Positions 6,869-20,486 of a stretch of 32,000 nt of DNA are shown here, piece after piece; position 1 is the first letter of the stretch; each line of letters begins with the position of its first letter. The translations under genes were made by a program, and so were the position numbers. Source of the DNA: Acaryochloris marina S15 (GTDB lineage Bacteria; Cyanobacteriota; Cyanobacteriia; Thermosynechococcales; Thermosynechococcaceae); NCBI RefSeq assembly GCF_018336915.1, contig NZ_CP064923.1, positions 1,410,001 through 1,442,000 of the forward strand. The letters run 5' to 3'. The notes beneath the pieces are model-generated. The model was not told the DNA's origin, made no database searches, and worked only from the letters and a program-made list of their open reading frames with translations.

Positions 6869-8497
6869 TTATTGAGACTGAAATTGTAATTCTTGAGATG
6901 CCTGGTCAGAGGGTCCTAATGTATCAGCAAAGGAGGGGATATGGATCAAGGCATGTTGATTGCGTCCCGCATCCTTGGCTTGCATCAAGGCTTGCGTGGT
7001 TTTATCCACTAACTTTGTCATGGGGATATCATGGGCAGGTCGCACAAACCCGATCCCTATACTGACAGTGACATATTCACTAATGGGGGAATAGATATGT
7101 TTGATTTTTAAGGCTTCTATGGATTCGATACAGCGCTGAGCTAGAGGTTCGGAATTAGCGGTATTCGGTAGCAGTAGAGCAAAGGTTTCCCCTTCAAATC
7201 TGGCCACCAGGTCTGCAGGACGCTTGAGAAGAGATTCTAATTGAGACGCAATTTTTTTCAGACAATCATCGCCAGCAACAAACCCATATCCCTCATTAAA
7301 TTGTCGGAAAAAATCTAGATTGATCAGAAATAGTGTCATGGGAGTCTGCTCACGAATCGCTCGCTTCCACTCTTTATCCAAACAGTCATTGAAATGCCGT
7401 CGGTTGGCAATAAAGGTTAACTCATCAGTGGTAGAGATCAGAGAAAGTTTTTTGTTGGCTTCTTCTAATTCCTTGGTGCGATCGCGGACAACGGTCTCCA
7501 CAATCTTCGACTGCCGTAGGATAAAGAACACATAAGCTTCAGCCAGCACCGTAAATACTAAACCAACCCAGAACACCGCCCAGGGTAAGCCACTTCGCTT
7601 CTCATTGAAATAAACATTAGAGGGGATAGCAGCGATAGTCCATTGCTGACCCGCAATAGGTTTGAGATCGTATCGATACTCATGTTCAGACAGCGACTGG
7701 CCTAATTTCGATTGCCGAGCATAAGGAATGTTCTGATTGGCCGTGTCAATGAGTTGAAGGTTGATGGCATCAACAGCACCCGGTTGAATAGCAGCATTGA
7801 CCAAATCACTGATTCGGAAGACCCCCAAAACCAAACCTTGCAAACGTTGGCGTCTGCTGTCTAATGTGTTGGGTTGGTCTTGATAGACGGGGATGAAGGT
7901 GATGAAGCCTTTTTGGTCTTCTCGCTCCTGCACCAAGGTCAAATTAGTTGTGGATTGGACCATCCCCGTATCTATTGCTAAGGTGATAGCTTCCATGCGA
8001 CTGGCATCGGATGCAAGATCAAATCCTAAAGCTAATTCATTGCCTGCAAAGGGTTCCAGAAACGATACTGGAAAATAGTTTGATCGTTTCTGGGCACGAA
8101 CCATCTTGCCTTGACTGACCTGTTGGGTAATTTCAAAAGCAGGATAATCTTGTTGCCGCTGTTTGATAAAAGTTGCCCGGTCTGCATGTTTAACTTTAGG
8201 TACCCATTCCAGAGCTTGAATATCTTTGTGACGAGCTAAGAGGTTGTGAGTGAACTGTTTGAATTCTTTTGGTTTGACCTGATCAGAACTATCAAACAAA
8301 AGTTTGAGGCTATTAATGACTTCCATCTTGGCATCAATATTGGCCTCCAAGCGATGGACCTGCTCATTGATATCCTGCTGAAAATCTTTCTGAATAGATT
8401 GAGTTTCTAGATAATAGAACTTCGTTGCCAATAACGCTGATAGACCAATTCCCAATATTCCTGTGGGAATAGAAATTAACGCTATTTTTCTGTTCAA
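6869..8497 (-). CDS. membrane sensor protein: CHASE extracytoplasmic domain + degenerate GGDEF domain
   Basis: 542-aa ORF. An N-terminal TM helix, a CHASE-like periplasmic region (IQALEWVPKVKHADRATF...) and a second TM helix (WAVFWVGLVFTVLAEAYVFFIL) precede a GGDEF fold (TDELTFIANRRHF...TVSIGIG...AKDAGRN). The signature reads EGETF instead of GG(D/E)EF. The start codon is TTG (8497-8495), preceded by GAGGGGAG about 8 nt upstream. Confidence 0.85.
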   Translation of the reverse strand: MNRKIALISIPTGILGIGLSALLATKFYYLETQSIQKDFQQDINEQVHRLEANIDAKMEVINSLKLLFDSSDQVKPKEFKQFTHNLLARHKDIQALEWVPKVKHADRATFIKQRQQDYPAFEITQQVSQGKMVRAQKRSNYFPVSFLEPFAGNELALGFDLASDASRMEAITLAIDTGMVQSTTNLTLVQEREDQKGFITFIPVYQDQPNTLDSRRQRLQGLVLGVFRISDLVNAAIQPGAVDAINLQLIDTANQNIPYARQSKLGQSLSEHEYRYDLKPIAGQQWTIAAIPSNVYFNEKRSGLPWAVFWVGLVFTVLAEAYVFFILRQSKIVETVVRDRTKELEEANKKLSLISTTDELTFIANRRHFNDCLDKEWKRAIREQTPMTLFLINLDFFRQFNEGYGFVAGDDCLKKIASQLESLLKRPADLVARFEGETFALLLPNTANSEPLAQRCIESIEALKIKHIYSPISEYVTVSIGIGFVRPAHDIPMTKLVDKTTQALMQAKDAGRNQHALIHIPSFADTLGPSDQASQELQFQSQ

Positions 8498-8561: not shown

Positions 8562-10047
8562 GGGCGTAAGCAAAGGATCGGGGATGCATGGCTCAAAGAA
8601 AAACGGGTCAAGGACAATAGATCCTGTACCCGAACCAAAAAACTATCATGACCCTACCATCGCAATTGCTAACCGTGCTAGCCCATGACGAATTTCTAGA
8701 ACAAACTGAAGCACTCAAAGTATCAACCAGCCTGAGTCAGATGGTTTATATCGTTCTGCAAATGGGCTTGTTTCTAGCTCGCTGTCTTCTGGAGGATGAA
8801 CTCTCAAGGCGCGCGAAAGCAGTATTTGTATGGCCTGTATGTACTACCTGCGGAACCCGCTTACATTCGAAGGGATGGGAATCTCGTCAGATGCAGACAC
8901 TGGTAGGCACTATCTCTTGAAAGCGACGGGTGGGCCGTTGTCCCAAAGGATGTCCAGGCAGTCTGTTGACTCCCCTGGATCAAGCCATTGGGATTGCCCC
9001 CTATCAGCACAGCAGCGAAGAACTGGTGCGTCTGGGCTGCTTGTTGAGTCTGTTCATGCCCTATGAACTGGCCAGTTGGATGCTGGGTCAGTGGAGTGGT
9101 CTATCCGTGAGTCCATCCAGTTTGTGGAACTGGGTGCAATCCGTGGGTAACAAAGCTCAGCAGGAATTAGAAGCTCAACTCAACGCTCAATCATCAGGGA
9201 CTCAGGCCCCTTGTGAAGCGATTTCAGAGATGTTATCTGCTCTACCTTTGGCCATTGCCGCCGATGGTGTGATGGTCCCCTTTCGCCCCACCCCGAACTC
9301 ACCCAAGGGAAAAATCCAGTGGCGAGAAGTCAAAGTCGCCATCTTAGCTCGCCTGGGAACACGGGTTACCCGAGCTAAAAAGGAGGTCCCCCAATTACTG
9401 CGTCGAAGACTGGTGGCAGTATTGGGCGATATCGACCAGTTCATCCCTTTACTTCAACTCGAAGCTCACAAACAAGACTTTGAATCTGCTCCAAAAGTCA
9501 TCTGGCTCAGTGATGGGGGACGAGGCTTCTGGCGAGTCTATCGCACCTTGTTCTCTCATTGTGCTGTGGCAGTCCTCGACTTTTTTCATTCAGCAGGCCA
9601 TCTGGCACGAGCAACTAAAGCGATGTTTGGAGATGCCCGCTCTGCTCAAGCCCAAGCCTGGTTCCGGCACTGGCGACACCAATTGCGACACGGGCAACAC
9701 CTACTTGTATTACGGTCCTTGACGATATTGATTCACTCACAACTGTTAACGGGAAAGTCTTTTTCAACGTTGCTCCAGGTGCAGGCTTATTTCCAACGCC
9801 ATCATAACCACATCCGTTATCGGCACTTTGAACAGCAACAGATTCCTCTCGGGTCAGGAATGGTTGAAAGTGCATGCAAGTGGTTGATTCAGCAGCGCTT
9901 TAAGGGAGTTGGCATGCGCTGGAGTGAGGATGGTTTCAACCATTTACTGATCTTGAGAATTGCCTGGGTCAATGAACGGTTTGACTCCTTATTCCCAGAG
10001 GTGACCATTCCGAAAACTAAGGCATCCCCGATCCGCTAAATACGCCC
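8562..10047 (+). mobile_element. ISKra4-family-like insertion sequence (1486 bp)
   Basis: Terminal inverted repeats are GGGCGTAAGCAAAGGATCGGGGATGC (8562-8587) and the reverse complement of 10022-10047 (GGGCGTATTTAGCGGATCGGGGATGC), matching 21/26. The element is flanked by a 9-bp direct repeat and carries a single transposase reading frame. Confidence 0.8.
8648..10039 (+). pseudogene. ISKra4-like transposase interrupted by one in-frame TGA (8918-8920)
   Basis: The 90-aa and 369-aa track ORFs are in the same frame. Read through, the sequence is ...CTTCGTRLHSKGWESRQMQTLVGTIS*KRRVGRCPKGCPGS..., a continuous Cys-rich N-terminal module. TGG to TGA (Trp to stop) is the simplest explanation. Confidence 0.75.
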
Positions 10048-10056
10048 TCATCCATC
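10048..10056. repeat. 9-bp target-site duplication (TCATCCATC), right copy
   Basis: See left copy at 8553-8561. Confidence 0.8.
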
Positions 10057-10874
10057 CTGTTTCATTGGGCAAGTAATAATTATCATTCTGTATAAAAAAT
10101 AGGGACTCACCGACTAGTGAAAATATTATTATTAATAAATCAATGTTGTCCTACGCCTATTTTGCCCACTTAACAGAGGTAAATGTAACAATCATTTTAT
10201 GCTTTGCTGACGAAATAAATTTATTTTTTCAGGCAGCTAAAAACCTAAAGTCATTAGCCACTTTGGTTCCTGGATAAAGGTATAAGAACCAAAGCTCACA
10301 CAAGTAGAATAAGTTTTCATAAAAATGATTTTTATCATACAAAAGTTATACAAAAATGCATTAAAAATATTCATCTATATTTAGAAGATTATCGATATGT
10401 CTTACTGGGGGCATGTTACCCAAGTGTTGGCTCATCGGTGTGCTTATCTGAATGGCCTAATGGGCTTGCAAAGATGCCATGCTTCCCTCTTGTGGTGGCT
10501 CTTAGATGTCTGGGTTAGTACGAACATTAGCAGATAATTCTTGTGCCTTGTCCAGTTCATTCCGGAAAAATTCTACTGAATTGTCACTTGTCTTGACACT
10601 TGTAAGTTGCGTCAATAGAAGTTTGAATTTATTCTGGAAAAATGAAAGTGTCAGCATAACGACTGATGGCTATACCATTTCTTTTATGAACTCAAGGATT
10701 AGCTTTACGATATCTATTGCGATGGCAAGCTTTAACTGATTGTTCATTGCTAAATCAATAGTAGTGGCCGAGAGTAAGAAAGACGCTAGGATTAAAAACT
10801 TTTGTCAGAAAATAAGATCGAATATACTGCAAGACCTCTGATAATAAGCGGGTATTCTAAGTAAAAAAGTATTC

Positions 10875-11837
10875 ATGACAGTGTCGTCCTTGCCGATGTC
10901 CGGGGTTTCCGGCCAAGAAATCTATCGCCGCTTAGCCAAAAATATCCAAACCGTTGTCAAAGGACAGAAGCCTGCCATTCGCAAATTATTGGCAGCCTTT
11001 GTTAGTGGTGGGCATGTGCTTTTAGAGGACTATCCCGGCACGGGTAAAACGACCTTGGCCAAAGCCTTGGCCCTATCCGTTGATATTGAATTCAAACGAA
11101 TTCAATTTACCCCTGATCTACTGCCCTCAGACATTTTGGGTGTATCGATTCTCAATCCCAAAGACCAAACCTTTGAATTCCACCAGGGCCCCATTTTTGC
11201 CAATTTGATTTTGGCGGATGAGATTAATCGGGCCTCTCCTCGCACCCAGTCGGCCTTACTAGAAGCGATGGCCGAGTCCCAGGTCAGCATTGATGGCCAG
11301 CAGATGAAACTGCATGATCCATTCTTTGTGATTGCCACTCAAAACCCCATCGATTCTCAAGGCACCTACCCTTTACCTGAAGCTCAGATGGATCGTTTCT
11401 CCATCCAGTTTGGACTCGGGTACATCTCCGCTGAAGAAGAGGTAGAGATTTTATCCAATCAGATGCAGGCCCACCCGATTGAACAGTTGCGTCCCTGCCT
11501 ATCTCTAGAAGATGTTTTTACCCTCAAACAAGCGGTGAAGCAGATTACCGTTAGTGAGGACCTCAAGCAATACGTTGTCAATATCGTCAATGCCACCCGT
11601 CAAGCAGAGGAAGTCCAACTTGGGGCCAGCCCCCGAGGGTCCATTGCCTTGATGAAGATTGCTCAAGCCTTGGCCCTGTTTGATGGCACCCCTGCTGTCC
11701 GCCCCAAACATATTCAAGAAGCCGCAGTTTCAGTCCTAGCCCACCGCCTAGTGATGGATCCGCAAGCAAAATTCGCGGGAAAAACATCGGAGCAGGTGGT
11801 GATGGATATTATGAGACGGCTTCCCGTTCCGGCATAA
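10875..11837 (+). CDS. MoxR-family AAA+ ATPase, copy 1
   Basis: 320-aa ORF with Walker A (YPGTGKTTLAK), Walker B (LILADEINRASP), the FVIATQNP...PLPEAQMDRF sensor region and a C-terminal lid (LGASPRGS). All are hallmarks of MoxR. Confidence 0.9.
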   Translation: MTVSSLPMSGVSGQEIYRRLAKNIQTVVKGQKPAIRKLLAAFVSGGHVLLEDYPGTGKTTLAKALALSVDIEFKRIQFTPDLLPSDILGVSILNPKDQTFEFHQGPIFANLILADEINRASPRTQSALLEAMAESQVSIDGQQMKLHDPFFVIATQNPIDSQGTYPLPEAQMDRFSIQFGLGYISAEEEVEILSNQMQAHPIEQLRPCLSLEDVFTLKQAVKQITVSEDLKQYVVNIVNATRQAEEVQLGASPRGSIALMKIAQALALFDGTPAVRPKHIQEAAVSVLAHRLVMDPQAKFAGKTSEQVVMDIMRRLPVPA

Positions 11838-11840
11838 CTC

Positions 11841-12803
11841 ATGGTGGTCTTAGCAACTCAAACCCATTGCTCGGAAGGGCAAACCATTTATCGTCACTTG
11901 GCTGACAATATCCAGCAGGTGATTAAGGGGCAGAATGCGGCCATTCGCAAATTACTGGCGGCCTTTTTTAGTGGTGGCCATGTGCTGTTGGAAGACTATC
12001 CCGGCACGGGTAAAACCACCCTCGCCAAGACCCTGGCCTATTCTGTCGATATTGCTTTTAAGCGAATTCAGTTTACCCCTGATTTGCTGCCCTCAGATAT
12101 TTTGGGAGTGTCCATTCTCAATCCCGAGGACCAGACCTTCCATTTTCATGAAGGTCCGATTTTTGCCAATCTGATTCTGGCAGATGAAATTAACCGGGCC
12201 TCTCCTCGCACTCAATCAGCTCTCCTAGAAGCGATGGCTGAGTCCCAAGTGACGATGGATGGCCAGCAGCGAAAGTTGCGTGATCCCTTTTTTGTGATTG
12301 CCACCCAAAATCCGGTGGACTTCCAGGGCACTTACCCTTTGCCGGAAGCCCAAATGGATCGATTTGCCTTGCAATTTAGCTTAGGATTTGTGTCCCCTGC
12401 TGATGAAATTAAAATCCTGACCCAGCAGCTAGAAGAACATCCCCTCCAGCAGGTTCAACCTTGCATCTCCTTAGAAGAGATCTTTACTCTCAAGCAGGCG
12501 GTGAAACAGGTGCGGGTCAGTCGGGAACTCAAACGCTATATCGTCGATATCGTCGCTGCTACTCGGCAGGTACCGGAGGTCCAACTGGGGGCGAGTCCTC
12601 GCGGATCACTCACCTTAATGAAAGTGGCCCAAGCCTTAGCCCTGTTCGATGGCTATGAGTATGTCACTCCCGATCATATTCAGGAAGTTGCCGTAGATGT
12701 GTTGGCCCATCGGCTGGTGATGTCTCCCCAAGCTTGCTTTGCCGAACAAACCGCCCAGGATTGCATTGACCGTATTCTGACTAGTATTCCGGCGCCTGCC
12801 TAA
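11841..12803 (+). CDS. MoxR-family AAA+ ATPase, copy 2 (tandem paralogue)
   Basis: 320-aa ORF, collinear with copy 1 without gaps. I count 88 mismatches in 320 positions by hand (~72% identity). The same Walker A/B and sensor motifs are intact. It starts 3 nt after the stop of copy 1. Confidence 0.9.
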   Translation: MVVLATQTHCSEGQTIYRHLADNIQQVIKGQNAAIRKLLAAFFSGGHVLLEDYPGTGKTTLAKTLAYSVDIAFKRIQFTPDLLPSDILGVSILNPEDQTFHFHEGPIFANLILADEINRASPRTQSALLEAMAESQVTMDGQQRKLRDPFFVIATQNPVDFQGTYPLPEAQMDRFALQFSLGFVSPADEIKILTQQLEEHPLQQVQPCISLEEIFTLKQAVKQVRVSRELKRYIVDIVAATRQVPEVQLGASPRGSLTLMKVAQALALFDGYEYVTPDHIQEVAVDVLAHRLVMSPQACFAEQTAQDCIDRILTSIPAPA

Positions 12804-12806
12804 GTT

Positions 12807-14138
12807 ATGGATGTATTGACGTATCGCTGTCTCCGTTTCATCTATGTCACCCGTAAATGGCTGGTGCAGCAGTTTACGCCTGCAGGATTAGGGGTATTGG
12901 GGGGCGGTATTGGGAGTGCGATCGCAAGTCTCGGTTCCACCCGCAGCATGTGTCACATTCTTTTCTTCTTTGCCTTTGCTTTGCTGATCTTGGCTACCAT
13001 TGGCAGTCGGTTGATTCAGTTTCGGTTTAAGGCCACCCGCCTGCTGCCCCGCTTTGGCACCGTTGGTGAACCCTTTCCTTACCAAGTGGTGATTCAGAAT
13101 CTCTCTCCCCAGCCCCAAAAGGGATTAAAGCTGGTCGAGACTTTTGCCGCCCCCTTTCCCAGCTTCCGCGAATTCATTCAGATTAAGCGCCGCTATCCCG
13201 TTGGCAACCAATGGCGGCCCCATTGGCGGCGCTACCTAGTCGAGCAGCAGTGGGCTAAGGCTCATCTGCAGGATCTGCCACCCCTCTCCACCAAAGGTAA
13301 AACCAAAGCTATGGTGGAAATCCTTCCCTTGCGACGGGGCAGTTTGCATCTCGAAACCATTACTCTCGCTTGTCCTGATCCCCTGGGCTTAATTTATAAA
13401 CACCACACCTACGACGTCGGCCAATCCTTGTGTATTTTGCCTCAACGCTATCAGCTCTTGCCGCTAAACCTCTCCCAAGCTAGTCAATACCAGTCTGGTG
13501 AAACCCTCCGCACCTCCGCAGTAGGAGAGGCCCTAGAATTCCGCTCCCTACGAGACTATCGAGCGGGAGACCCCACCAATAAGATTCACTGGAAAAGCTG
13601 GGCTAAAGTCGGTCGTCCCATTGTCAAAGAGCAACAGGACGAGACCGCCATCCACCATGCCTTGATTCTAGATACCTTCCAGCTAGAACCCCACAGCCCC
13701 CTCTTTGAAGAAGCTATTGCTGTGGCCATCTCTTTTCTAATGCAAGAACAGCCTGAAGCCTCTCTACTGGATGTGATCTATGCAGCAGCCGATCCTCGTT
13801 TAGTTACCGTGGGCAAGGGACTGCGCCAACGGGCACAAATCATCGAAACCGTTGCTACTCTCAACCCCAACCCCCATCGAGAACTGGAGTGCCTCAATCC
13901 GATCCTTCAATCTCGCTTGTCCCGACTCAGCGGCTGCTTCTGTATTTTGCTGGGCTTTGATGACACTCGCTATGCATTTCTGAAAATGCTCAGCCAGTAT
14001 GGCATTCCCATCAAGGCTATTTGTCTGTCAGACCTTAGCCTGCATATGGATCCCCAGTTTCAAGAATATTTTGGCCCCCAGTGTCAGCTGCACTCCGGGA
14101 CCATATCCAATCTACAACAGGAGTTATTGGCCCTATGA
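12807..14138 (+). CDS. DUF58-domain membrane protein (MoxR-associated, VWA-like)
   Basis: 443-aa ORF with two N-terminal TM helices and the DUF58 core motif FRSLRDYRAGDPTNKIHWKSWAKVGRPIVKE. It starts 3 nt after the MoxR-2 stop. Confidence 0.85.
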   Translation: MDVLTYRCLRFIYVTRKWLVQQFTPAGLGVLGGGIGSAIASLGSTRSMCHILFFFAFALLILATIGSRLIQFRFKATRLLPRFGTVGEPFPYQVVIQNLSPQPQKGLKLVETFAAPFPSFREFIQIKRRYPVGNQWRPHWRRYLVEQQWAKAHLQDLPPLSTKGKTKAMVEILPLRRGSLHLETITLACPDPLGLIYKHHTYDVGQSLCILPQRYQLLPLNLSQASQYQSGETLRTSAVGEALEFRSLRDYRAGDPTNKIHWKSWAKVGRPIVKEQQDETAIHHALILDTFQLEPHSPLFEEAIAVAISFLMQEQPEASLLDVIYAAADPRLVTVGKGLRQRAQIIETVATLNPNPHRELECLNPILQSRLSRLSGCFCILLGFDDTRYAFLKMLSQYGIPIKAICLSDLSLHMDPQFQEYFGPQCQLHSGTISNLQQELLAL

Positions 14139-16828
14139 AGCAATCAGCGCCAACTCTCTGTAGCCTATCCCTCTGCTTTTGGGGCTATCAAACCGGAGCA
14201 TGGATCGTCGCGATTCCCATGGCCTTAGCCCTGGAAGCTAGGGAAATGGTTAAACAGCGCTGGCCCCTCACCCTAGACCGACTCAAGCAACTTCATGTTG
14301 TAGCCCTATTTTTATGGTTGCTAGCTGTATTTTTTCTCCCCCCGAATTCTCCCGAGGCCATCCCCTACGCAGCCAGATATCATTTGATCAAATGTTTGCC
14401 CATCGGACTATTTCCCTTCGTCCTGGCTCAGACTTACTGTAGAAATTTCGTCTCAGTCTATCGCCAATATCTAGGCAATATCGCCCAGTCTTGGAAAACA
14501 GTTAATTGGTATTACCCCTACTTTGGCATTTGTCTACTCGCCGCCAGTGCCACCGGCGGCAACCTGTTCGTCTTCCTGGCTATCAGCGCAGTACTCATTG
14601 CGCTTTTCTTAGGAACAGTACGCTGTCCCGTTAACCGCAAACTCTCCCTACGATTTTCCCAGTCCACTTTTTACGGTCTGATTGTTCTGGCATTGGTCCT
14701 TAGCCTGATCAGCACTCATCAGGTCTATTGGCTCCAGGCCAATGTTCGGCTCCCCGGCCCCGCTGTTTTCGGCGACTTTATTCAGAAAATGGCTCGAATT
14801 TGGCCCGACGATCCAGGTCGAGGTTACCAAGGGGATCTGGATCGGTTACTGGAGGATATGGAGCTAGAAACTGACACAATTGTTAGGTCCAAAAACGGCA
14901 ATCAAAATTCCAATACGCCTGGCAGTACTGACTCGCCCAGCCATTCCAGCGGCACCCCTTCAAGCACCCCAACATCGGGAACGCCAAGCAACTCTGGCAA
15001 CAACAATAGCAACCCCTCCACCCCCGATGGTGCTACTCCAGAAGATTCTACTGAAGACTCATCCGCCACACCTGAGCAAGAACCAGATTCAGACATCAGT
15101 CAGCCCAACGAGGAAACCAGTTCCCCAGACATTTCCGATCCCAGTCCTGCACAGAACCCTGGAACCTCTCAACCCCCAGATAATTCAGCGCCAACCAGTG
15201 GACCAGGCCGTAAAAATCCAGGACAGACGAAAGCTCCTAGTCAGCAGCCCCAGCCCGGTCAAAATGATGGGCAATCCCTCCCTAGTCTTGTGCAACGATC
15301 AGGCGGCATCGTTGACCCTGAAAAAGCCCAAACTCAAATCGGTAATATTGGGTCTCTGCAACGTTCCAATGCCATTCTGTTTCGGGTTGCTCTTAACCAA
15401 AAAGCCAATAGCCCCAAACCCCAATTTCCGCTCTATATTCGAGAAGCTACCTACAACCAATACCAGTCAGGTAGCTGGAATGCTGTCTGGTCCAAATTTA
15501 CGGCCAAACGTCCACGGTCCAAACGCCAGAGCTGGCGCTTTGGTGCAACAACGAACCGAACGACTTCAGTCCGCATTTCATCTGAGTTACTCCAGAAGGA
15601 AGGAATCTTAAAACTGCCCCTGGGTACTTCTGAAGTCAACCAGCTTAAGGTTAGAACCCTGAAAGAAAACCAGTACGGTACGGTTGGTATCCAGGGAAAA
15701 CCCGGTCCTCTCGCCTATACAGTGCAGTTTGATCCTAGACAATCTCTAGACAGTCCACCCACCGTCTTTGATAAAGCTGTCCCTACCGCTGAAAAGCCTA
15801 CCCTCAAAAAAGTTCTTAATTCCTTGGATCTAGATGGTAAATCTGATGCAGATAAGGTTGAGGCCGTTTCAGCTTTCTACAAAACCCAGGGGTTTCAATA
15901 TTCCCTCGATCTGCCAAAACCCAAGAAAAACAAAACGCCGATGGCAGCTTTCTTGCTAGACCATCGGTCGGGCCATTGTGAGTACTATGCCTCGGCTACC
16001 TCACTATTGCTCAGATCGGCAGGCATCCCTACTCGCTATGCGGTTGGCTATACCGCCCATGAATACAGCCCCACGGAACAACAATATATTGTCCGCCTCA
16101 AAGATGCCCATGCCTGGGTCTTAGCCTATGTAGACAATACCTGGGTCAAAGTCGAAACCACCCCAGGTGGTGGAATGACCCCAGAGCAAAATACGGGGAC
16201 GGCCCAAAGTGGCAACGCCCAAGAGGGTTTCACATCACGGGATGGAAACTCAGCCCAGGACGGCACCTCATCTGAAGATAGCTCCTCAATGGGGGAAAAT
16301 AACAAGCCACCCTCTAAATCTTTTTTCGAAAAACTATCTGAAGCTTGGTCTGAATTAATGACCCTGCTCTCTAAAAATTCGGAGACCCTGATTTGGGCCG
16401 GTTCAATGATTGTGCTGGGACTGGCGATTATTTTTGGATCTATCTATTTAATCTGGAGGATGATCCATAAAAAACGTTCACAGCAGTCAAAAAGACGGAG
16501 GTATCAGGGAGCAGAACGCCCCCGAAAACCGACCACTGGCGGGCTAGACTCTGAGTTTTACCAAATTGAGAAACGTCTGGGAGATTGGGGGCTTGCACGT
16601 CTGCCCTCGGAAACTGTCCGCAAATGGTTGGGGCGATTGGATCAGGAACTGCCCGATGCATATATGAGTGAACTGCATCAAATAATCGATTTGCACTATC
16701 GCTACCGTTTTGACCCCCAAGGTCTCACTGAGGAGGACAGAGAAAAGTTGAAACTCATGATCCAATCTTGGCTCAGTGAATTTAAACAACTCTCTGTGCA
16801 AAGACCTCGCTCAGCCATAAATCACTGA
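14135..16828 (+). CDS. transglutaminase-like (TgpA-type) polytopic membrane protein with a C-terminal DUF4129-like domain
   Basis: I prefer the ATG at 14135 (MKQSAP..., ATGA overlap with the DUF58 stop) to the track's GTG at 14081. The protein has an N-terminal multi-TM block, a ~130-aa Pro/Ser/Thr/Asn-rich linker and a transglutaminase core (SGHCEYYASATSLLLRSAGIPTRYAVGY...DAHAWVLAYVDNTWVKVETTP). A second low-complexity stretch, a TM helix and a cytoplasmic tail follow. Confidence 0.85.
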   Translation: MKQSAPTLCSLSLCFWGYQTGAWIVAIPMALALEAREMVKQRWPLTLDRLKQLHVVALFLWLLAVFFLPPNSPEAIPYAARYHLIKCLPIGLFPFVLAQTYCRNFVSVYRQYLGNIAQSWKTVNWYYPYFGICLLAASATGGNLFVFLAISAVLIALFLGTVRCPVNRKLSLRFSQSTFYGLIVLALVLSLISTHQVYWLQANVRLPGPAVFGDFIQKMARIWPDDPGRGYQGDLDRLLEDMELETDTIVRSKNGNQNSNTPGSTDSPSHSSGTPSSTPTSGTPSNSGNNNSNPSTPDGATPEDSTEDSSATPEQEPDSDISQPNEETSSPDISDPSPAQNPGTSQPPDNSAPTSGPGRKNPGQTKAPSQQPQPGQNDGQSLPSLVQRSGGIVDPEKAQTQIGNIGSLQRSNAILFRVALNQKANSPKPQFPLYIREATYNQYQSGSWNAVWSKFTAKRPRSKRQSWRFGATTNRTTSVRISSELLQKEGILKLPLGTSEVNQLKVRTLKENQYGTVGIQGKPGPLAYTVQFDPRQSLDSPPTVFDKAVPTAEKPTLKKVLNSLDLDGKSDADKVEAVSAFYKTQGFQYSLDLPKPKKNKTPMAAFLLDHRSGHCEYYASATSLLLRSAGIPTRYAVGYTAHEYSPTEQQYIVRLKDAHAWVLAYVDNTWVKVETTPGGGMTPEQNTGTAQSGNAQEGFTSRDGNSAQDGTSSEDSSSMGENNKPPSKSFFEKLSEAWSELMTLLSKNSETLIWAGSMIVLGLAIIFGSIYLIWRMIHKKRSQQSKRRRYQGAERPRKPTTGGLDSEFYQIEKRLGDWGLARLPSETVRKWLGRLDQELPDAYMSELHQIIDLHYRYRFDPQGLTEEDREKLKLMIQSWLSEFKQLSVQRPRSAINH

Positions 16829-16895
16829 GGTATAGACTATCCATTAGAGGATCATTCTTTCTCATTGACAGCATGTTTTGAAACCAGTGAATTCA

Positions 16896-17402
16896 ATGGA
16901 CACGATTACAGTTCGGCAGTCAGCCAAGCTATATATTCACTGGCCTGAAGGAGGTGGATTCCAACAAATTGAGATGCTGATTAACGGTGTCCCGCTTATT
17001 GAACTTGTCCGAGAAGTGGAATTACCTTATGCAGAGGAAGAATTCGATCAACGAACTGCCGATGGTGAAGGTATAGACGATTTAGGTTCGCGAGGAGCAC
17101 TGGCTGGTGACTATCACTACTTACCTCCATCCATAGCACTACCCCCTTCACAAAATTTTTTTGGCGAACCATACAATCACGGACTTTTGACAGAATCTGA
17201 TGACCCAGTCAACCTAAAGTCTGTGATTTTGTCATGCACCTGTGGTGTCACTGAATGTTGGTTTCTTATGGCTAACATCACATTGAAGGAAAAATTGGTG
17301 GTATGGGACAATTTTCAGCAATTTCACCGCGATTGGGCCTATACGCTAGGACCGCTTGTGTTTGATCGAGAGCAGTATACAGCCGCATTTAATGCTGCAT
17401 AG
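16896..17402 (+). CDS. hypothetical protein (168 aa from the ATG; the track ORF begins at a TTG at 16878)
   Basis: Open frame with protein-like composition, an acidic central stretch and a Cys cluster (SCTCGVTECWF). I recognise no family. Confidence 0.5.
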   Translation: MDTITVRQSAKLYIHWPEGGGFQQIEMLINGVPLIELVREVELPYAEEEFDQRTADGEGIDDLGSRGALAGDYHYLPPSIALPPSQNFFGEPYNHGLLTESDDPVNLKSVILSCTCGVTECWFLMANITLKEKLVVWDNFQQFHRDWAYTLGPLVFDREQYTAAFNAA

Positions 17403-17431
17403 CCAATTACCGCTACAAAATAGCGATATAA

Positions 17432-17560
17432 GCCGAAATTGAGCGTAATGAATATCGTTTTTGTAGATTAGGGATGTACAACATCCACAGCAACTTATAA
17501 TTTTGAGTTTTGCAGGCAGATAGCGGATCCGTTGATGTTGAGATTGTTGATTATCACTAA
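17432..17560 (+). pseudogene. higB: decayed 3' stub of a higB (RelE/ParE-superfamily) toxin gene
   Basis: The frame ending at TAA 17558-17560, 4 nt before the higA ATG, reads ...IHSNL*F*VLQADSGSVDVEIVDYH*. The ...V(D/E)xxDYH* ending is the typical HigB C-terminus. A neighbouring frame reads ...YNFEF.... The stub has stops and at least one frameshift, and only ~158 nt are available upstream where ~280 nt would be needed. Confidence 0.45.
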
Positions 17561-17564
17561 CATT

Positions 17565-17876
17565 ATGAGCAAACCAACTAATCGTATGCGCCCCGTTCAT
17601 CCAAGAGAAATTCTTAGGGAAGATTATCTTATCCCTCTCAATATGAGCGGCAATGCATTGGCTTTAGCCCTGAATGTTCCAGCGACTCGGATCCACGAAA
17701 TTGTGAAAGAGCGTCGTTCCGTTACTGCTGATACAGCTGAGCGCCTCGCTCGCTACTTTGGCGGAGATGCAGCCTCCTGGCTAAATCTTCAAGCGATGTA
17801 TGATCTCAAAACACTACCAACACGAGATGAAATTATTAGGCGAGTTAAACCTCGATCAGTGAAGCAATCAGCTTAA
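17565..17876 (+). CDS. higA: HigA-family antitoxin (XRE-type HTH)
   Basis: 103 aa from the ATG at 17565: MSKPTNRMRPVHPREILREDYLIPLNMSGNALALALNVPATRIHEIVKERRSVTADTAERLARYFGGDAASWLNLQAMYDLK. This matches the HigA antidote consensus almost position for position. Confidence 0.85.
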   Translation: MSKPTNRMRPVHPREILREDYLIPLNMSGNALALALNVPATRIHEIVKERRSVTADTAERLARYFGGDAASWLNLQAMYDLKTLPTRDEIIRRVKPRSVKQSA

Positions 17877-18280
17877 TCTTTGTTTTCTCAAAAATGGATC
17901 AAGTAAAAATCACAAGATCATCGTGAACTGACGTTCCTTGAGAGCGCATCACTTTTTACAGATAAAAAATAAACTCCTGGTTTTTTGTTCTCTCACAGTT
18001 ACCAAATCAATGGGTTTGAGCGCAGTCTGAATATTCTTTCAAAAAGGTGACATGCTCCCAGCTCCTTCAATCCAGTATGCGGTGGGTAAAAAAATGCGTG
18101 GATTTAGGTGAGTGTCGAAAAGGTAAGTTTACTTGTTGTGTTGAGAATGTTCACTCGCATTCAGAAAGGGGAATTCTGGATACACAACGAAATTCCTAAT
18201 GGTTACGGGTCGTTCATGGGTAGCTTTTTCGCTTTTGCCTGACTCAAAACCAAAAAAGACCTGAGCTAGGAGTGCAACCA

Positions 18281-18604
18281 ATGAGCTATAAAATTATCCA
18301 ACCCATTAGCCTGACAGACGGGATTGGTCTTAACCAATTACGCAATGAAGTTAACACTGTGTTAGACGGAGGAGTATCCACGATCCTTTTAGATCTACAA
18401 GATGTCACCTTTATCAATAGTTCGGCAATTGGTGCCTTAGTCGCGATGCATAAAGCAGTGCACGGTAAAAGTGGCACTCTATCTTTATGTTCCATGAGAA
18501 AACAGGTTAGTCTTGTCCTTAAATTATCTAGAATGGACCAAATTTTTGAGATTTTTGCAGATCAGCAAGCATTTCAGCAAAAACAGGAGACTCCTGTTAT
18601 TTAG
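18281..18604 (+). CDS. STAS-domain protein (anti-sigma-factor antagonist, SpoIIAA-like)
   Basis: 107 aa from the ATG at 18281, with AGGAG 8 nt upstream; the track ORF starts at a GTG at 18272. The FINSSAIGALV motif (phosphorylatable Ser region) and the ...LSRMDQIFEIF tail are typical of the family. Confidence 0.8.
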   Translation: MSYKIIQPISLTDGIGLNQLRNEVNTVLDGGVSTILLDLQDVTFINSSAIGALVAMHKAVHGKSGTLSLCSMRKQVSLVLKLSRMDQIFEIFADQQAFQQKQETPVI

Positions 18605-18737: not shown

Positions 18738-20486
18738 CTAACCTGGGCTAGGAGCATGAACCCGATCTTTCACAGATTGGGGCTGGCCCCAAATTACTTG
18801 CTCATGCTTATAAATCACCATCCCTGGCTTGGCCCCTTTAGGCTTATACACATTTTTGGATTCGGTATAAATGACAGGAACCTGGTGGCTTTGTCGAGCC
18901 CGACTATAGTAGGCCGCCATATTGGCAGCAAACTGCATATCTCCTGGTTCAGGAACAGCTCCTGCTTCTAATCTCAAGAGCACATGGCTACCCGGAATTT
19001 CTTGGGTATGAAACCACAGATCGTAGGTAGTGGCTGTCCGAAACGTGAGCAGGTCATTCTGACGATTATTGCGACCAATCAGTAGCTCCCATCCCGAAGG
19101 AGATTGATATTGGTAAAACGGAATTTCAGGTGGGGCATCTTTGCGATACTCCAGCTTCGGGAAATAGTTTTGTAAGATCAGTTCATCTCGAATATCGTGT
19201 AGCGTTAACAAATCCGCAGCATCTTCAAATTGCTCTAACTGCTGGATACTGGCTTCCACTTGATCTAAATAGGCAACCTCTGACAGCACCTCTTCTAGCA
19301 AAGGCTGCACTTGGGCACGAGAGCGTTTCAGTTTTTGATGGCGTTTGTACCAAGCTTGGGCATTTTGGACTGCGTTTTTTTCTGGATTGAGGGTCAGCGT
19401 TCGAGGTTCACCGGATTCAAAATCCTTCAAAGTTAGGGTTTTCATTCCCAACTGCCATTCATGCAAATGGGCCATCAGTAAGTCAGCCCGTTCTCGATAG
19501 GCTTCAGCCGTGTCTGAAGCCTTCAACTGATCCTGAAAGGTTTTAGCTTTCGTGTTGAGTTTCTTGAGATGGCCTTTGACCTTTTGCTGCAGCTGATGCC
19601 GAAGTTGTTTAAAGACCTGCTCGCCTAACTGCTGACTGTAATACTCATCCAGCAGGATTTGAGTATCGGTAGCAGGATGCGTGATATCCCACCCCAATAC
19701 CGTATAACTCAGAGACTCGCCTCGACACCATCCAGGGGTAAAAGATTGGTTCTCTAAAGCCGACAGCCAATCCTGCCAAGCTTGAAATAGCCGTTGCCAA
19801 TCTGCTTCTTGTAGCTGTTCTGTAGAGAGATCGGGTTTCAGAGCAACGGTAGAAAGCATGGACAACACCAAAGCCGAACTCAAACCTCGATAGGTTTTGA
19901 GTAAATTCCGTTTGAGGGGACCCGGCACTAGGCCTACTTGCCGTTGCCAATGTTCAAAGGATTCTGACAAGGTCGGAATGGGGTCGGTGAGGTGAGGTGG
20001 GGGTTGGTAGAGGTCTCCGGTTTGAATAGGGCGAACACTGGACTGTTGAGCGCTAACTTGGTGGGCTGCCGTGACAATTCGATTTTCCGCATTGGTCAAT
20101 ATGACATTGCTGTACTTGCCCATGATTTCTACATAGACATGCCAATCAACGGGGGCTTGAGGGCGCTGTCCAATCTGCAGGTCAATCACCCGTTCCCAAG
20201 CGGCAATCGGTTCAATGGCAATCAAAGCAAGGCCATTAAGCTGATGGCGTAGCTGTTGGCTAAAGGTAAAGGTATCTGCTCCTTTGGGTGGGGGTGTTCC
20301 CATACAAATTCGGGCAGCTTGGGGATGCCAACTGAGGGCCAGCCACCCCCGCTGATCGAGGGTACGCAGGCCAATATAGACCGTGAACCGATCTTGCTGA
20401 ACCACCTGTTCGATGCGTGCGGGTAGCCATTGCGATCGCAACTCGCAGCACGCCGCTGTTAATGTCGTAAAGTCAACCTGTTGCAC
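18738..20486 (-). CDS. NFACT-family protein (FbpA/RqcH-like ribosome quality-control factor)
   Basis: 582-aa ORF with an N-terminal NFACT-N region, a central coiled coil, and a C-terminal NFACT-R/DUF814 motif (YDLWFHTQEIPGSHVLLR...AAYYSRAR). Confidence 0.8.
   Translation of the reverse strand: MQQVDFTTLTAACCELRSQWLPARIEQVVQQDRFTVYIGLRTLDQRGWLALSWHPQAARICMGTPPPKGADTFTFSQQLRHQLNGLALIAIEPIAAWERVIDLQIGQRPQAPVDWHVYVEIMGKYSNVILTNAENRIVTAAHQVSAQQSSVRPIQTGDLYQPPPHLTDPIPTLSESFEHWQRQVGLVPGPLKRNLLKTYRGLSSALVLSMLSTVALKPDLSTEQLQEADWQRLFQAWQDWLSALENQSFTPGWCRGESLSYTVLGWDITHPATDTQILLDEYYSQQLGEQVFKQLRHQLQQKVKGHLKKLNTKAKTFQDQLKASDTAEAYRERADLLMAHLHEWQLGMKTLTLKDFESGEPRTLTLNPEKNAVQNAQAWYKRHQKLKRSRAQVQPLLEEVLSEVAYLDQVEASIQQLEQFEDAADLLTLHDIRDELILQNYFPKLEYRKDAPPEIPFYQYQSPSGWELLIGRNNRQNDLLTFRTATTYDLWFHTQEIPGSHVLLRLEAGAVPEPGDMQFAANMAAYYSRARQSHQVPVIYTESKNVYKPKGAKPGMVIYKHEQVIWGQPQSVKDRVHAPSPG

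Follow-up and report, generated by a model that had tools for sequence, protein, structure and literature searches.

A three-gene operon, MoxR-vWA-YebA(TGL), was described by Zhang & Aravind 2012, who proposed that it constitutes a membrane-proximal degradation system (PMC3495828), and the 'YebA-coupled system' is an entry among the MoxR-vWA dyads of Kaur et al. 2020 (PMC7159879). In Pseudomonas aeruginosa, the homologous genes PA2875 (MoxR), PA2874 (DUF58) and tgpA (PA2873) are co-transcribed; TgpA is essential and its periplasmic transglutaminase (TGase) domain is active in vitro (Milani et al. 2012, PMC3507681). The MoxR-DUF58-transglutaminase triad also occurs in the PFNA cluster of Bifidobacterium (pkb2-fn3-aaa_atp-duf58-tgm), which differs from the locus studied here in its additional Ser/Thr kinase and FN3 genes, its single MoxR, its actinobacterial origin and its host-interaction context (PMC8430577, PMC6803598). 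The present locus from Acaryochloris marina S15 shares three protein families, their order and their location on one strand with MoxR-vWA-YebA(TGL), and gene order with the P. aeruginosa cluster, but carries two diverged MoxR paralogues where these have one. RavA-ViaA is similar in that a MoxR-clade AAA+ ring is paired with a vWA-domain adaptor, as is also the case for CbbQ-CbbO, NorQ-NorD, BchI/BchD Mg-chelatase and midasin. Such systems comprise either one ATPase gene or an ATPase together with a degenerate AAA-vWA fusion (BchD), and none of them is known to have two intact tandem MoxR paralogues.

Four ORFs occupy positions 10875-16828 on the + strand of the window, i.e., the whole analyzed stretch of 32,000 nucleotides (Table 1). 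Pfam, PDB and fold matches bear out their original assignment as MoxR-MoxR-DUF58-transglutaminase, and we read the operon as the widespread MoxR / DUF58 / TgpA-type transglutaminase module with a doubled ATPase. The module had been called functionally unexplained; this is not entirely so, given the proposal in PMC3495828 and the P. aeruginosa data in PMC3507681, but stands for cyanobacteria, for which our literature search found no functional data. The predicted 3-nt, 3-nt and ATGA junctions are confirmed by the ORF coordinates and by the junction sequences (in order, TAA-ctc-ATG, TAA-gtt-ATG and ATGA). This tight gene coupling is real and is conserved throughout the clade with a doubled ATPase: across the 15 doubled loci, MoxR-A and MoxR-B are 319-322 aa long and separated by 0-28 nt, and the overlap of the DUF58 and transglutaminase genes is kept in 15/15. 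A longer version of the fourth ORF, with a GTG start at 14081, is possible, but the ATG at 14135 is favored because every one of these loci keeps the ATGA overlap. We infer a single mRNA with coupled translation for all four genes. In the spacer upstream of MoxR-A, the ORF list contains no ORF of at least 80 aa, and GC content is 0.37 at 10001-11000 versus ~0.5 within the operon. DNA synteny with other Acaryochloris genomes starts at 10805-10827, and a sigma-70 consensus scan of the upstream region yielded 9 sites versus 9.4 expected and so was uninformative.

Table 1. Features of the MoxR-MoxR-DUF58-transglutaminase locus (positions in the window).
Feature	Position	Strand	Description
Upstream spacer	10040..10874	+	AT-rich, non-coding; presumed promoter region
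MoxR-A	10875..11837	+	320 aa, MoxR-family AAA+ ATPase, slower-evolving paralogue
MoxR-B	11841..12803	+	320 aa, MoxR-family AAA+ ATPase, faster-evolving paralogue, adjoins DUF58 gene
DUF58 protein gene	12807..14138	+	443 aa
TgpA/YebA-type membrane transglutaminase-like gene	14135..16828	+	897 aa; start overlaps DUF58 stop (ATGA)

Both ATPases match the Pfam profiles AAA_3 (PF07726; MoxR-A 214 bits, E = 6.6e-64; MoxR-B 212 bits, E = 2.9e-63; gathering cut-off 27 bits) and AAA_lid_2 (79 bits, E = 1.9e-22 and 81 bits, E = 4.1e-23, respectively; cut-off 22.7 bits). The nearest solved structure to MoxR-A is 2r44 (2r44_A, E = 4.8e-74 over residues 21-317). A neighboring DUF58/vWA gene is the context of the MRP subfamily of Snider & Houry, as cited in PMC12067865, and the DUF58 gene indeed begins 3 nt past MoxR-B. 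These matches and this context place both paralogues among the MoxR-family (MoxR-proper/MRP-type) AAA+ ATPases. BLASTP aligns them over their full 320 aa with 232/320 = 73% identity, 84% positives, 0 gaps and E = 3e-178, close to the ~72% originally counted by hand. Walker A (GTGKTT), Walker B (DE), sensor-1 N157, Arg-finger R174 and sensor-2 R254 are invariant in all aligned copies (12 A copies, 13 B copies and 16 single-copy relatives); the expectation of two intact ATPases thus holds in 25/25 copies, none of which has lost a catalytic residue. Judged by these motifs, both paralogues are full-length and active-looking, and dN/dS values around 0.03 relative to other Acaryochloris (0.024-0.034 for MoxR-A; 0.030-0.043 for MoxR-B) point to strong purifying selection on both alike. 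The AF2 monomer model of MoxR-A has a pLDDT of 36.

The third protein scores just under the DUF58 (PF01882) cut-off (22.4 versus 23.4 bits), and most of its orthologues, at 40-89% identity, are annotated with this family. Its predicted architecture comprises an N-terminal helical membrane anchor (hydrophobic segment 48-66, followed by a K/R-rich stretch), an Ig/MG-like beta-sandwich and a C-terminal vWA-like domain. Foldseek matched its AF2 model (pLDDT 80.6) to ITIH1 (6fpy, E = 6e-8) and vWF A3 (1atz/1fe8, target TM 0.54-0.56), and to C3 MG / TRAP-beta sandwiches, as is consistent with a vWA (Rossmann-like alpha/beta) fold in the modeled protein. The vWA domains of the RavA-ViaA-type systems generally retain a MIDAS, whereas the canonical DxSxS is absent from the vWA-like domain of the DUF58 protein, which in this respect also differs from the MoxR-vWA-YebA(TGL) operon. 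The site, as positioned by strand 282-288 of the AF2 model, reads LILD289-T-F-Q-L, and D289, T290, F291 and Q292 (DTFQ) are invariant across 19 family members.

The fourth protein carries a Transglut_core domain (PF01841; 67.9 bits, E = 1.1e-18, cut-off 23), which also matches the P. aeruginosa TgpA structure 6g49 (E = 7.9e-13 to the TGase core), and a C-terminal DUF4129 region (28.9 bits, cut-off 24.8) that is found in 71/79 loci. The TgpA_N match is weak (29.5 bits, cut-off 30) and covers only the C-terminal part of that domain. N-terminal TM helices, a P/S/T-rich disordered insert, the TGase core, a last TM helix and the DUF4129 region are predicted in this order. A Kyte-Doolittle scan gives hydrophobic segments at 50-68, 144-162, 174-192 and 752-770, the last followed by K/R residues, and the TGase core (567-674) lies between them, which fits a TgpA/YebA-type polytopic membrane protein with its TGase domain between TM segments. 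From the K/R distribution in this crude hydropathy scan and the P. aeruginosa precedent (PMC3507681), we infer that the TGase domain is extracytoplasmic, whereas Zhang & Aravind assigned the TGL domain to a cytoplasmic loop (PMC3495828). No exception to the catalytic Cys occurs among 73 homologous loci, and the His is present in all 70 loci where its column aligned; both are shared with P. aeruginosa TgpA. At the third position of the triad, the window protein and 7 other loci have Glu, whereas 60 loci have Asp, as does TgpA; compared with TgpA, the window protein is also larger (897 aa) and has a long P/S/T-rich insert.

The distribution of the doubled ATPase was surveyed in ~170 related loci, all reached through DUF58 relatedness, of which ~150 have the same MoxR-DUF58-transglutaminase order. 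Two adjacent MoxR genes occur in 9/80 genome loci, 1/80 metagenome loci and four further contigs. These 14 loci and the window, which make up the 15 doubled loci (one with its A copy cut by a contig end), all belong to one DUF58 clade of Acaryochloris and Thermosynechococcales-like cyanobacteria; no other clade in the survey has the arrangement. Of the remaining evaluable loci, almost all carry a single MoxR, and ~10 have none adjacent. The doubling is thus clade-wide, and we found no published description of it. It is real and apparently undescribed, and departs modestly from a known module of still hypothetical function.

The MoxR tree answers whether the duplication is ancient or recent. 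The A and B clades hold the same set of genomes, and bootstrap values are 193/200 for the A clade with the A-only single copies, 194/200 for the B clade with the B-only ones and 141/200 for the joint clade. Synonymous divergence between A and B is saturated (pS 0.71), and every genome compared shows 69% nucleotide identity between them, so there has been no gene conversion. Tree and divergence together indicate one ancient tandem duplication in the ancestor of Acaryochloris and the related Thermosynechococcales-like cyanobacteria, after which the paralogues were vertically co-inherited. It is extremely unlikely that one paralogue has degenerated into a non-catalytic regulatory subunit or that the pair results from a recent duplication or an assembly artefact, a view that would draw on the general expectation of frequent decay or mis-assembly among tandem duplicates. 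A degenerate copy is rejected by the invariant motifs and the low dN/dS of both paralogues, a recent duplication by the low nucleotide identity and saturated dS, and an artefact by the same arrangement in the complete genome of A. marina MBIC11017 (L001) and 13 other independent assemblies.

Either copy has been cleanly lost in some relatives. A-only operons are present in L010, L161 and L168, which are sister to the doubled L165 in the DUF58 and MoxR trees (163/200), and a B-only operon in L012/L162; no remnant of the lost copy was found at these loci. The operons otherwise look functional: their DUF58 and TGase partners are unchanged, and the DUF4129 region is still there. Neither copy is therefore strictly dependent on the other, and each can apparently serve alone. 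These losses with the remaining operon intact agree with largely redundant, interchangeable ATPases that are kept for dosage or by drift and have no mechanistic meaning, as do the identical catalytic motifs, the small number of mostly conservative fixed differences (see below) and the non-essentiality of the P. aeruginosa MoxR homologue itself (PMC3507681). Redundancy is unlikely, however, since both copies persist in 15 doubled loci, and the B type in 37 distinct protein clusters, despite saturated synonymous sites, since no homogenization has occurred, and since clade-wide paralogue signatures, including K278 versus D278, indicate distinct constraints.

As originally noted, the paralogues diverge most at the first ~12 residues, in the lid region and over the last ~26 residues: from 0.85-0.92 in the ATPase core, A/B identity drops to 0.17 (residues 1-12), 0.46 (181-215) and 0.38 (295-320). 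The accompanying interpretation of these segments as partner surfaces received no specific support. They are variable family-wide, with a mutual identity of 0.31, 0.57 and 0.52, respectively, among single-copy homologues, and being the least conserved among orthologues and single copies they reflect low general constraint rather than demonstrable partner surfaces. Fixed differences between the paralogue clades number only ~8, lie mostly in or near the lid half and are mostly conservative. Derived changes are T276R and E278K in the A clade and S161F, Y183F, I184V, V234I and V309I in the B clade. The charge at residue 278 is reversed between A (K) and B (D; outgroups have E), and residue 276 is R in A and T in B; the B signature present in the 37 clusters is F161 F183 V184 I234 V262 T276 D278 I309. 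Their location in or near the lid half suggests a mild sub-functionalization of ring contacts or partner docking.

A stronger form of sub-functionalization would be separate rings, i.e., A and B homo-hexamers for different partners, clients or conditions, for example with one ring type on the vWA-like domain of the DUF58 protein and the other on the transglutaminase's DUF4129 tail. This is a tentative, somewhat unlikely alternative. It is in keeping with the clustering of fixed residues in the lid/C-terminal half, including positions 276 and 278, with an A/B divergence that exceeds the within-clade divergence in residues 181-320 and not in the core (46-180), and with the long retention of both copies at dN/dS ~0.03. 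Yet the ATPase cores, which bear most inter-protomer AAA+ contacts, are 85-92% identical, a divergence no greater than that among orthologues, only ~8 positions differ consistently between A and B, and the A-only and B-only lineages hold the same partners. With near-identical cores and co-translation from adjacent cistrons, avoiding co-assembly would need specific barriers.

Mixed, facultative MoxR-A/B hexamers are the likeliest arrangement, as the almost identical cores and side-by-side synthesis favor co-assembly. A hetero-oligomeric ring, as the original prediction put forward, is plausible; an obligate heteromer is argued against by the A-only and B-only operons. Eukaryotic Rvb1/Rvb2, Pex1/Pex6 and the cyanobacterial FtsH hetero-complexes are AAA+ paralogue hetero-rings with demonstrated co-assembly. 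MoxR-A and MoxR-B resemble them as two similar, catalytically competent-looking paralogues that could share a ring, but differ in that their co-assembly is a prediction and either copy is apparently losable. The mixed ring would dock on the cytoplasmic vWA-like domain of the DUF58 protein and possibly also on the transglutaminase, through its cytoplasmic DUF4129 tail. Driven by ATP, it would remodel or activate the DUF58/transglutaminase membrane complex, which in turn may control a Cys-His-Glu/Asp transglutaminase/peptidase that works outside the cytoplasm on proteins of the cell envelope. We assign a probability of about 0.5 to this reading as a whole, i.e., a known module with an old ATPase duplication in which facultative mixed hexamers act on a membrane complex.

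An ordered hetero-hexamer (e.g., alternating A3B3), in which one subunit type docks on the DUF58 vWA-like domain and the other on the DUF4129 tail, is quite doubtful. If true, MoxR rings would have their first natural hetero-hexamer, which would also be a living prokaryotic counterpart to the initial step leading from homo-hexameric MoxR towards the differentiated concatenated AAA+ rings of midasin and dynein.

Two observations count against mixed rings: pure redundancy equally predicts the reciprocal losses of A or B, and the excess A/B divergence in the lid half (181-320) could reflect separate partners and not ring contacts. Mirror-tree correlations with the DUF58 protein are non-discriminating (r = 0.88 for A and 0.85 for B). 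Orthologue distances of MoxR-B are 1.35 times those of MoxR-A.

The operon formed by MoxR, DUF58 and TgpA-type transglutaminase genes is among the commonest conserved bacterial modules that still lack a mechanism, and the triad itself is not new. Zhang & Aravind 2012 (PMC3495828) described a 'very common' three-gene operon of MoxR, vWA and YebA-like TGL genes and proposed membrane-proximal degradation in which the vWA protein recruits, MoxR unfolds and the TGL cleaves; the same operon returns as the 'YebA-coupled system' in Kaur et al. 2020 (PMC7159879). In bifidobacteria, the triad lies inside the PFNA cluster (PMC8430577, PMC6803598). For P. aeruginosa, PA2875-PA2874-tgpA were found to be co-transcribed, with an essential tgpA, a non-essential MoxR gene (PA2875) and a periplasmic TgpA domain that has TGase activity in vitro (Milani et al. 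2012, PMC3507681). The operon of A. marina S15 carries two adjacent MoxR genes, the upstream MoxR-A and the DUF58-proximal MoxR-B. This doubling is real and, as far as the literature was searched, without earlier description: no paper was found on MoxR, DUF58 and cyanobacteria combined, nor on doubled or hetero-hexameric MoxR. The doubling amounts to an architectural variant of the known operon, restricted to one clade, and not to a new kind of system.

The original prediction of four packed same-strand ORFs, including two MoxR genes of exactly equal length, was borne out in every particular by the ORF list, the junctions and BLASTP. Successive genes are joined by TAA-ctc-ATG, TAA-gtt-ATG and an ATGA stop/start overlap at 14135-14138. 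The transglutaminase ORF can be extended upstream to a GTG at 14081; because the ATGA overlap is kept in 15 out of 15 doubled loci examined, 14135 is its likely start. Across the doubled loci, the spacers measure 0-28 nt from A to B and 0-29 nt from B to DUF58. The four genes would thus be expressed as one transcript with coupled translation, as suggested by the co-transcription of their P. aeruginosa homologues (PMC3507681). A scan of 10000-17600 returned 9 promoter-like sites (9.4 expected) and 4 terminator-like sites (7.9 expected), neither above chance, and therefore provides no evidence on the transcript ends.

Features of the doubled MoxR operon and its surroundings
Feature	Position	Strand	Detail
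MoxR-A	10875-11837	+	320 aa, ORF list
MoxR-B	11841-12803	+	320 aa, ORF list
DUF58 gene	12807-14138	+	443 aa, ORF list
Transglutaminase gene	long ORF to 16828; likely start 14135	+	ORF list
CHASE-GGDEF diguanylate cyclase	6869-8497	-	
174-aa ORF	16878-17402	+	no family match
HTH_3 protein	17532-17876	+	
STAS-domain protein	18272-18604	+	
NFACT/RqcH-like protein	18738-20486	-	NFACT_N, E = 6e-122

MoxR-A and MoxR-B align by BLASTP with 232 identities over 320 residues (73%) and no gaps (E = 3e-178). Both match Pfam AAA_3 (E ~1e-63) and AAA_lid_2, neither reaches the cut-off of any NCBIfam equivalog, and the nearest solved structure is the MoxR protein 2r44 (E = 4.8e-74). MoxR length varies from 319 to 322 aa across doubled loci, and the ATPase motifs are invariant in every A and B copy compared. 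Both genes are under purifying selection, with a dN/dS relative to four other Acaryochloris genomes of 0.024-0.034 for A and 0.030-0.043 for B. At the nucleotide level, A and B share 69% identity in every genome and pS is saturated (0.71), so no gene conversion has occurred; in protein identity, the two copies are about as far apart as MoxR orthologues of different cyanobacterial orders (70-76%). This low identity, the saturation and the invariant motifs refute the alternatives that one copy is degenerate and regulatory, that the duplication is recent or that the pair is an assembly artefact.

To tabulate the doubling, DUF58 homologues were aligned, 80 species-representative genome loci and 80 metagenome loci (mainly cyanobacteria and Desulfobacterota) were taken, and MoxR, DUF58 and TGase were mapped on them by tblastn. 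Among these DUF58-related loci, two adjacent MoxR genes are confined to one clade. They occur in four Acaryochloris loci (L001, L002, L003 and L007), one of them from the complete A. marina MBIC11017 genome (NC_009925, about 5.3427-5.3487 Mb), and in five MAGs (L005, L006, L008, L009 and L013) labeled as Thermosynechococcus, Thermosynechococcaceae, Acaryochloridaceae, Stenomitos or 'uncultured'. The metagenome loci added one doubled case (L081) and 37 more with a single MoxR, and the contigs encoding DUF58 proteins at 53-57% identity yielded four further doubled loci (L163, L164, L165 and L167) and three single-copy loci (L161, L162 and L168). Nearly all other evaluable loci, spread over many cyanobacterial orders and Desulfobacterota, contain one MoxR gene, while about ten have none adjacent. 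A tblastn search of MoxR-A against plasmids matched 415 records, nearly all at one place, and is uninformative on tandem pairs in other phyla.

The loci with no MoxR within 4.5-8 kb upstream of DUF58 comprise three Xenococcaceae MAGs (L069, L075 and L077) as well as L100, L110, L119, L121, L137, L157 and L160. Most of them still carry the transglutaminase gene; the ATPase is therefore not always encoded beside its presumed partners. Some members of the group have two separate MoxR-DUF58-TGase modules per genome. The Acaryochloridaceae MAG OTE_25_metabat_464 combines L013, in the doubled clade, with L014, a more distant single-MoxR locus whose DUF58 is 45% identical, and thus holds three MoxR paralogues of this kind. 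MAG MFD12179 bin10 carries L015 and L011, the contig of the latter breaking off inside its MoxR gene.

In neighbour-joining (NJ) trees with Kimura correction, all upstream copies fall in a clade A and all DUF58-proximal copies in a clade B, with the same genomes in each, so that the two copies are co-inherited. Single-MoxR loci join either clade: L010, L161 and L168 group with A (bootstrap 193/200), L012 and L162 with B (194/200), and the whole group has a bootstrap of 141/200. In the DUF58 tree, which is independent of MoxR, the doubled loci form a monophyletic clade (56/60) whose sister is L012; in a denser DUF58 tree, L010 and L168 group with the doubled L165, and L161 branches beside them. 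At eight diagnostic residues, L012 and L162 show the B state seven times and never the A state, and L010 shows the A state six times and never the B state. Placement of these singles as a long-branch artefact was consequently rejected on the diagnostic states, the DUF58 tree and the bootstraps of 193-194/200, all trees being NJ only. No remnant of a second copy was detectable in the single-copy loci. The simplest reading would be one tandem duplication at the base of the clade, after which some lineages lost B and one lost A; the duplication is an ancient one.

That B-only lineage, comprising Lyngbya confervoides BDU141951 (L012) and Logan SRR19750695 (L162), is the only one found. Its branch is very long in both trees, that of MoxR (63-67% identity to A as well as B) and that of DUF58, and its whole operon is fast-evolving. 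The two entries probably represent the same organism, as they give identical tblastn identity and length for the MoxR queries.

Divergence between A and B is highest in the first ~12 residues, around residues 185-215 of the lid and in the last ~26 residues, just as originally proposed. Their reading as partner-contacting surfaces lacks specific support, since conservation among orthologues and single-copy relatives is likewise lowest in these three segments, which thus mostly reflect low constraint. Over the lid half (181-320), however, divergence between A and B exceeds that within each clade, which is not so for the ATPase core (46-180). About eight columns hold fixed differences, given as the A and B residue, respectively: 161 (S, F), 183 (Y, F), 184 (I, V), 234 (V, I), 262 (I, V), 276 (R, T), 278 (K, D) and 309 (V, I). 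Relative to outgroups, R276 and K278 (a charge reversal) are derived in A, and F183, V184 and I309 in B; F161 and I234 are probably also derived in B, with a weaker outgroup majority. In a 5.8-billion-protein database, 37 distinct 90%-identity clusters show the B signature. Distances between B orthologues are on average 1.35 times those between A orthologues, and a Tajima-type relative-rate test counts, relative to outgroups, more unique changes in B than in A for 12 out of 12 genomes (~30 versus 22), although the difference is individually significant in one genome only and the 12 genomes share a stem branch. An AF2 model of MoxR-A meant for mapping the fixed differences (31-sequence alignment) reached a mean pLDDT of 36 and a pTM of 0.18, probably due to an alignment that was too shallow and too similar, and was left unused.

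The DUF58 protein scores 22.4 bits against Pfam DUF58, one bit below the gathering score, and most orthologues carry PF01882. Its AF2 model (19-sequence alignment, pLDDT 80.6) is predicted to consist of N-terminal helices, a beta-sandwich and a C-terminal alpha/beta domain. Foldseek linked this model to the vWA-containing inter-alpha-inhibitor heavy chain 1 (E = 6e-8), to vWF A3 (target TM 0.56) and to macroglobulin / TRAP-beta type sandwiches. A profile search against PDB sequences found nothing, so the vWA assignment rests on the fold search. The expected MIDAS DxSxS site reads D-T-F-Q (residues 289-292; window 13671-13682), invariant in the family; any MoxR-adaptor role of this DUF58 subfamily is therefore probably independent of a MIDAS metal. 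A hydropathy scan places a K/R-rich stretch after the hydrophobic anchor, by which the bulk of the protein (residues ~70-443) is probably cytoplasmic.

The transglutaminase matches Transglut_core, DUF4129 and, sub-threshold, TgpA_N in Pfam, and P. aeruginosa TgpA (6g49) with E = 7.9e-13. Across 73 homologous loci the catalytic Cys never varies, and the His is present in 70 out of 70 with an aligned column. At the third triad position, 60 loci have Asp, as does P. aeruginosa TgpA; the window (motif KVETTP, 16190-16200) and seven other loci, among them A. marina L001 and the A-only L010, have Glu. According to the hydropathy scan, the TGase core sits in a ~560-residue loop between TM segments, in agreement with the periplasmic TGase domain of P. 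aeruginosa TgpA (PMC3507681), and a K/R-rich tail (residues ~771-897) follows the last TM segment, suggesting that DUF4129 is probably cytoplasmic. DUF4129 does not correlate with the doubled ATPase; 71 of 79 loci have the C-terminal region. A long P/S/T/N/Q-rich low-complexity insert (residues ~250-400; window ~14880-15330) falls in the loop predicted to be extracytoplasmic. In relatives with a single MoxR it cannot be aligned, tblastn breaking there into two HSPs, and it is a probable contributor to the strongly negative GC skew at 13-16 kb.

MoxR rings may act from the cytoplasm on the vWA-like DUF58 domain, and perhaps also on the DUF4129 tail, and would thereby remodel or activate the membrane transglutaminase/peptidase, whose catalytic domain would face the envelope. 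We favor facultative mixed A/B hexamers (probability about 0.5), because A and B are synthesized next to each other and share 85-92% identity in the cores that form most of the ring contacts. Lineages that retain A or B alone speak against an obligate heteromer. Separate homo-hexamers of A and of B with different partners are conceivable but doubtful, though the lid-half divergence fits such a split. Mirror-tree correlations with DUF58 (r = 0.88 for A, 0.85 for B) do not discriminate. That A and B are near-redundant, or kept for dosage, seems rather unlikely. In the favored mixed rings, the lid changes might add a mild specialization of A and B.

The immediate significance of the finding is limited: a gene has been duplicated within an operon type already known, and no phenotype is attached to it. 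Nonetheless, doubled, A-only and B-only relatives constitute a natural experiment on MoxR-partner and MoxR-MoxR contacts, and matched systems for how a MoxR ring engages a vWA-like adaptor and a membrane enzyme. These genomes allow a test of whether newly duplicated AAA+ subunits stay mixed in one ring, and of which residues of the lid (161, 183/184, 276/278) determine the specificity for partner or neighbor.

The operon DNA is 82-86% identical to that of other Acaryochloris, with synteny beginning ~50-70 nt upstream of MoxR-A. The flanking genes seem to have no relation to the operon; a counterpart of the 174-aa ORF lies at 13613-14159 of A. marina L001 (82% nucleotide identity). Just beyond the syntenic region, 835 nt upstream of the operon, two consecutive ORFs (8648-8920 and 8930-10039, +) jointly match the ISKra4-family transposase NF033572 (23 and 222.9 bits, respectively), covering profile positions 20-82 and 89-421, and the pair looks like an interrupted or pseudogenized IS copy.
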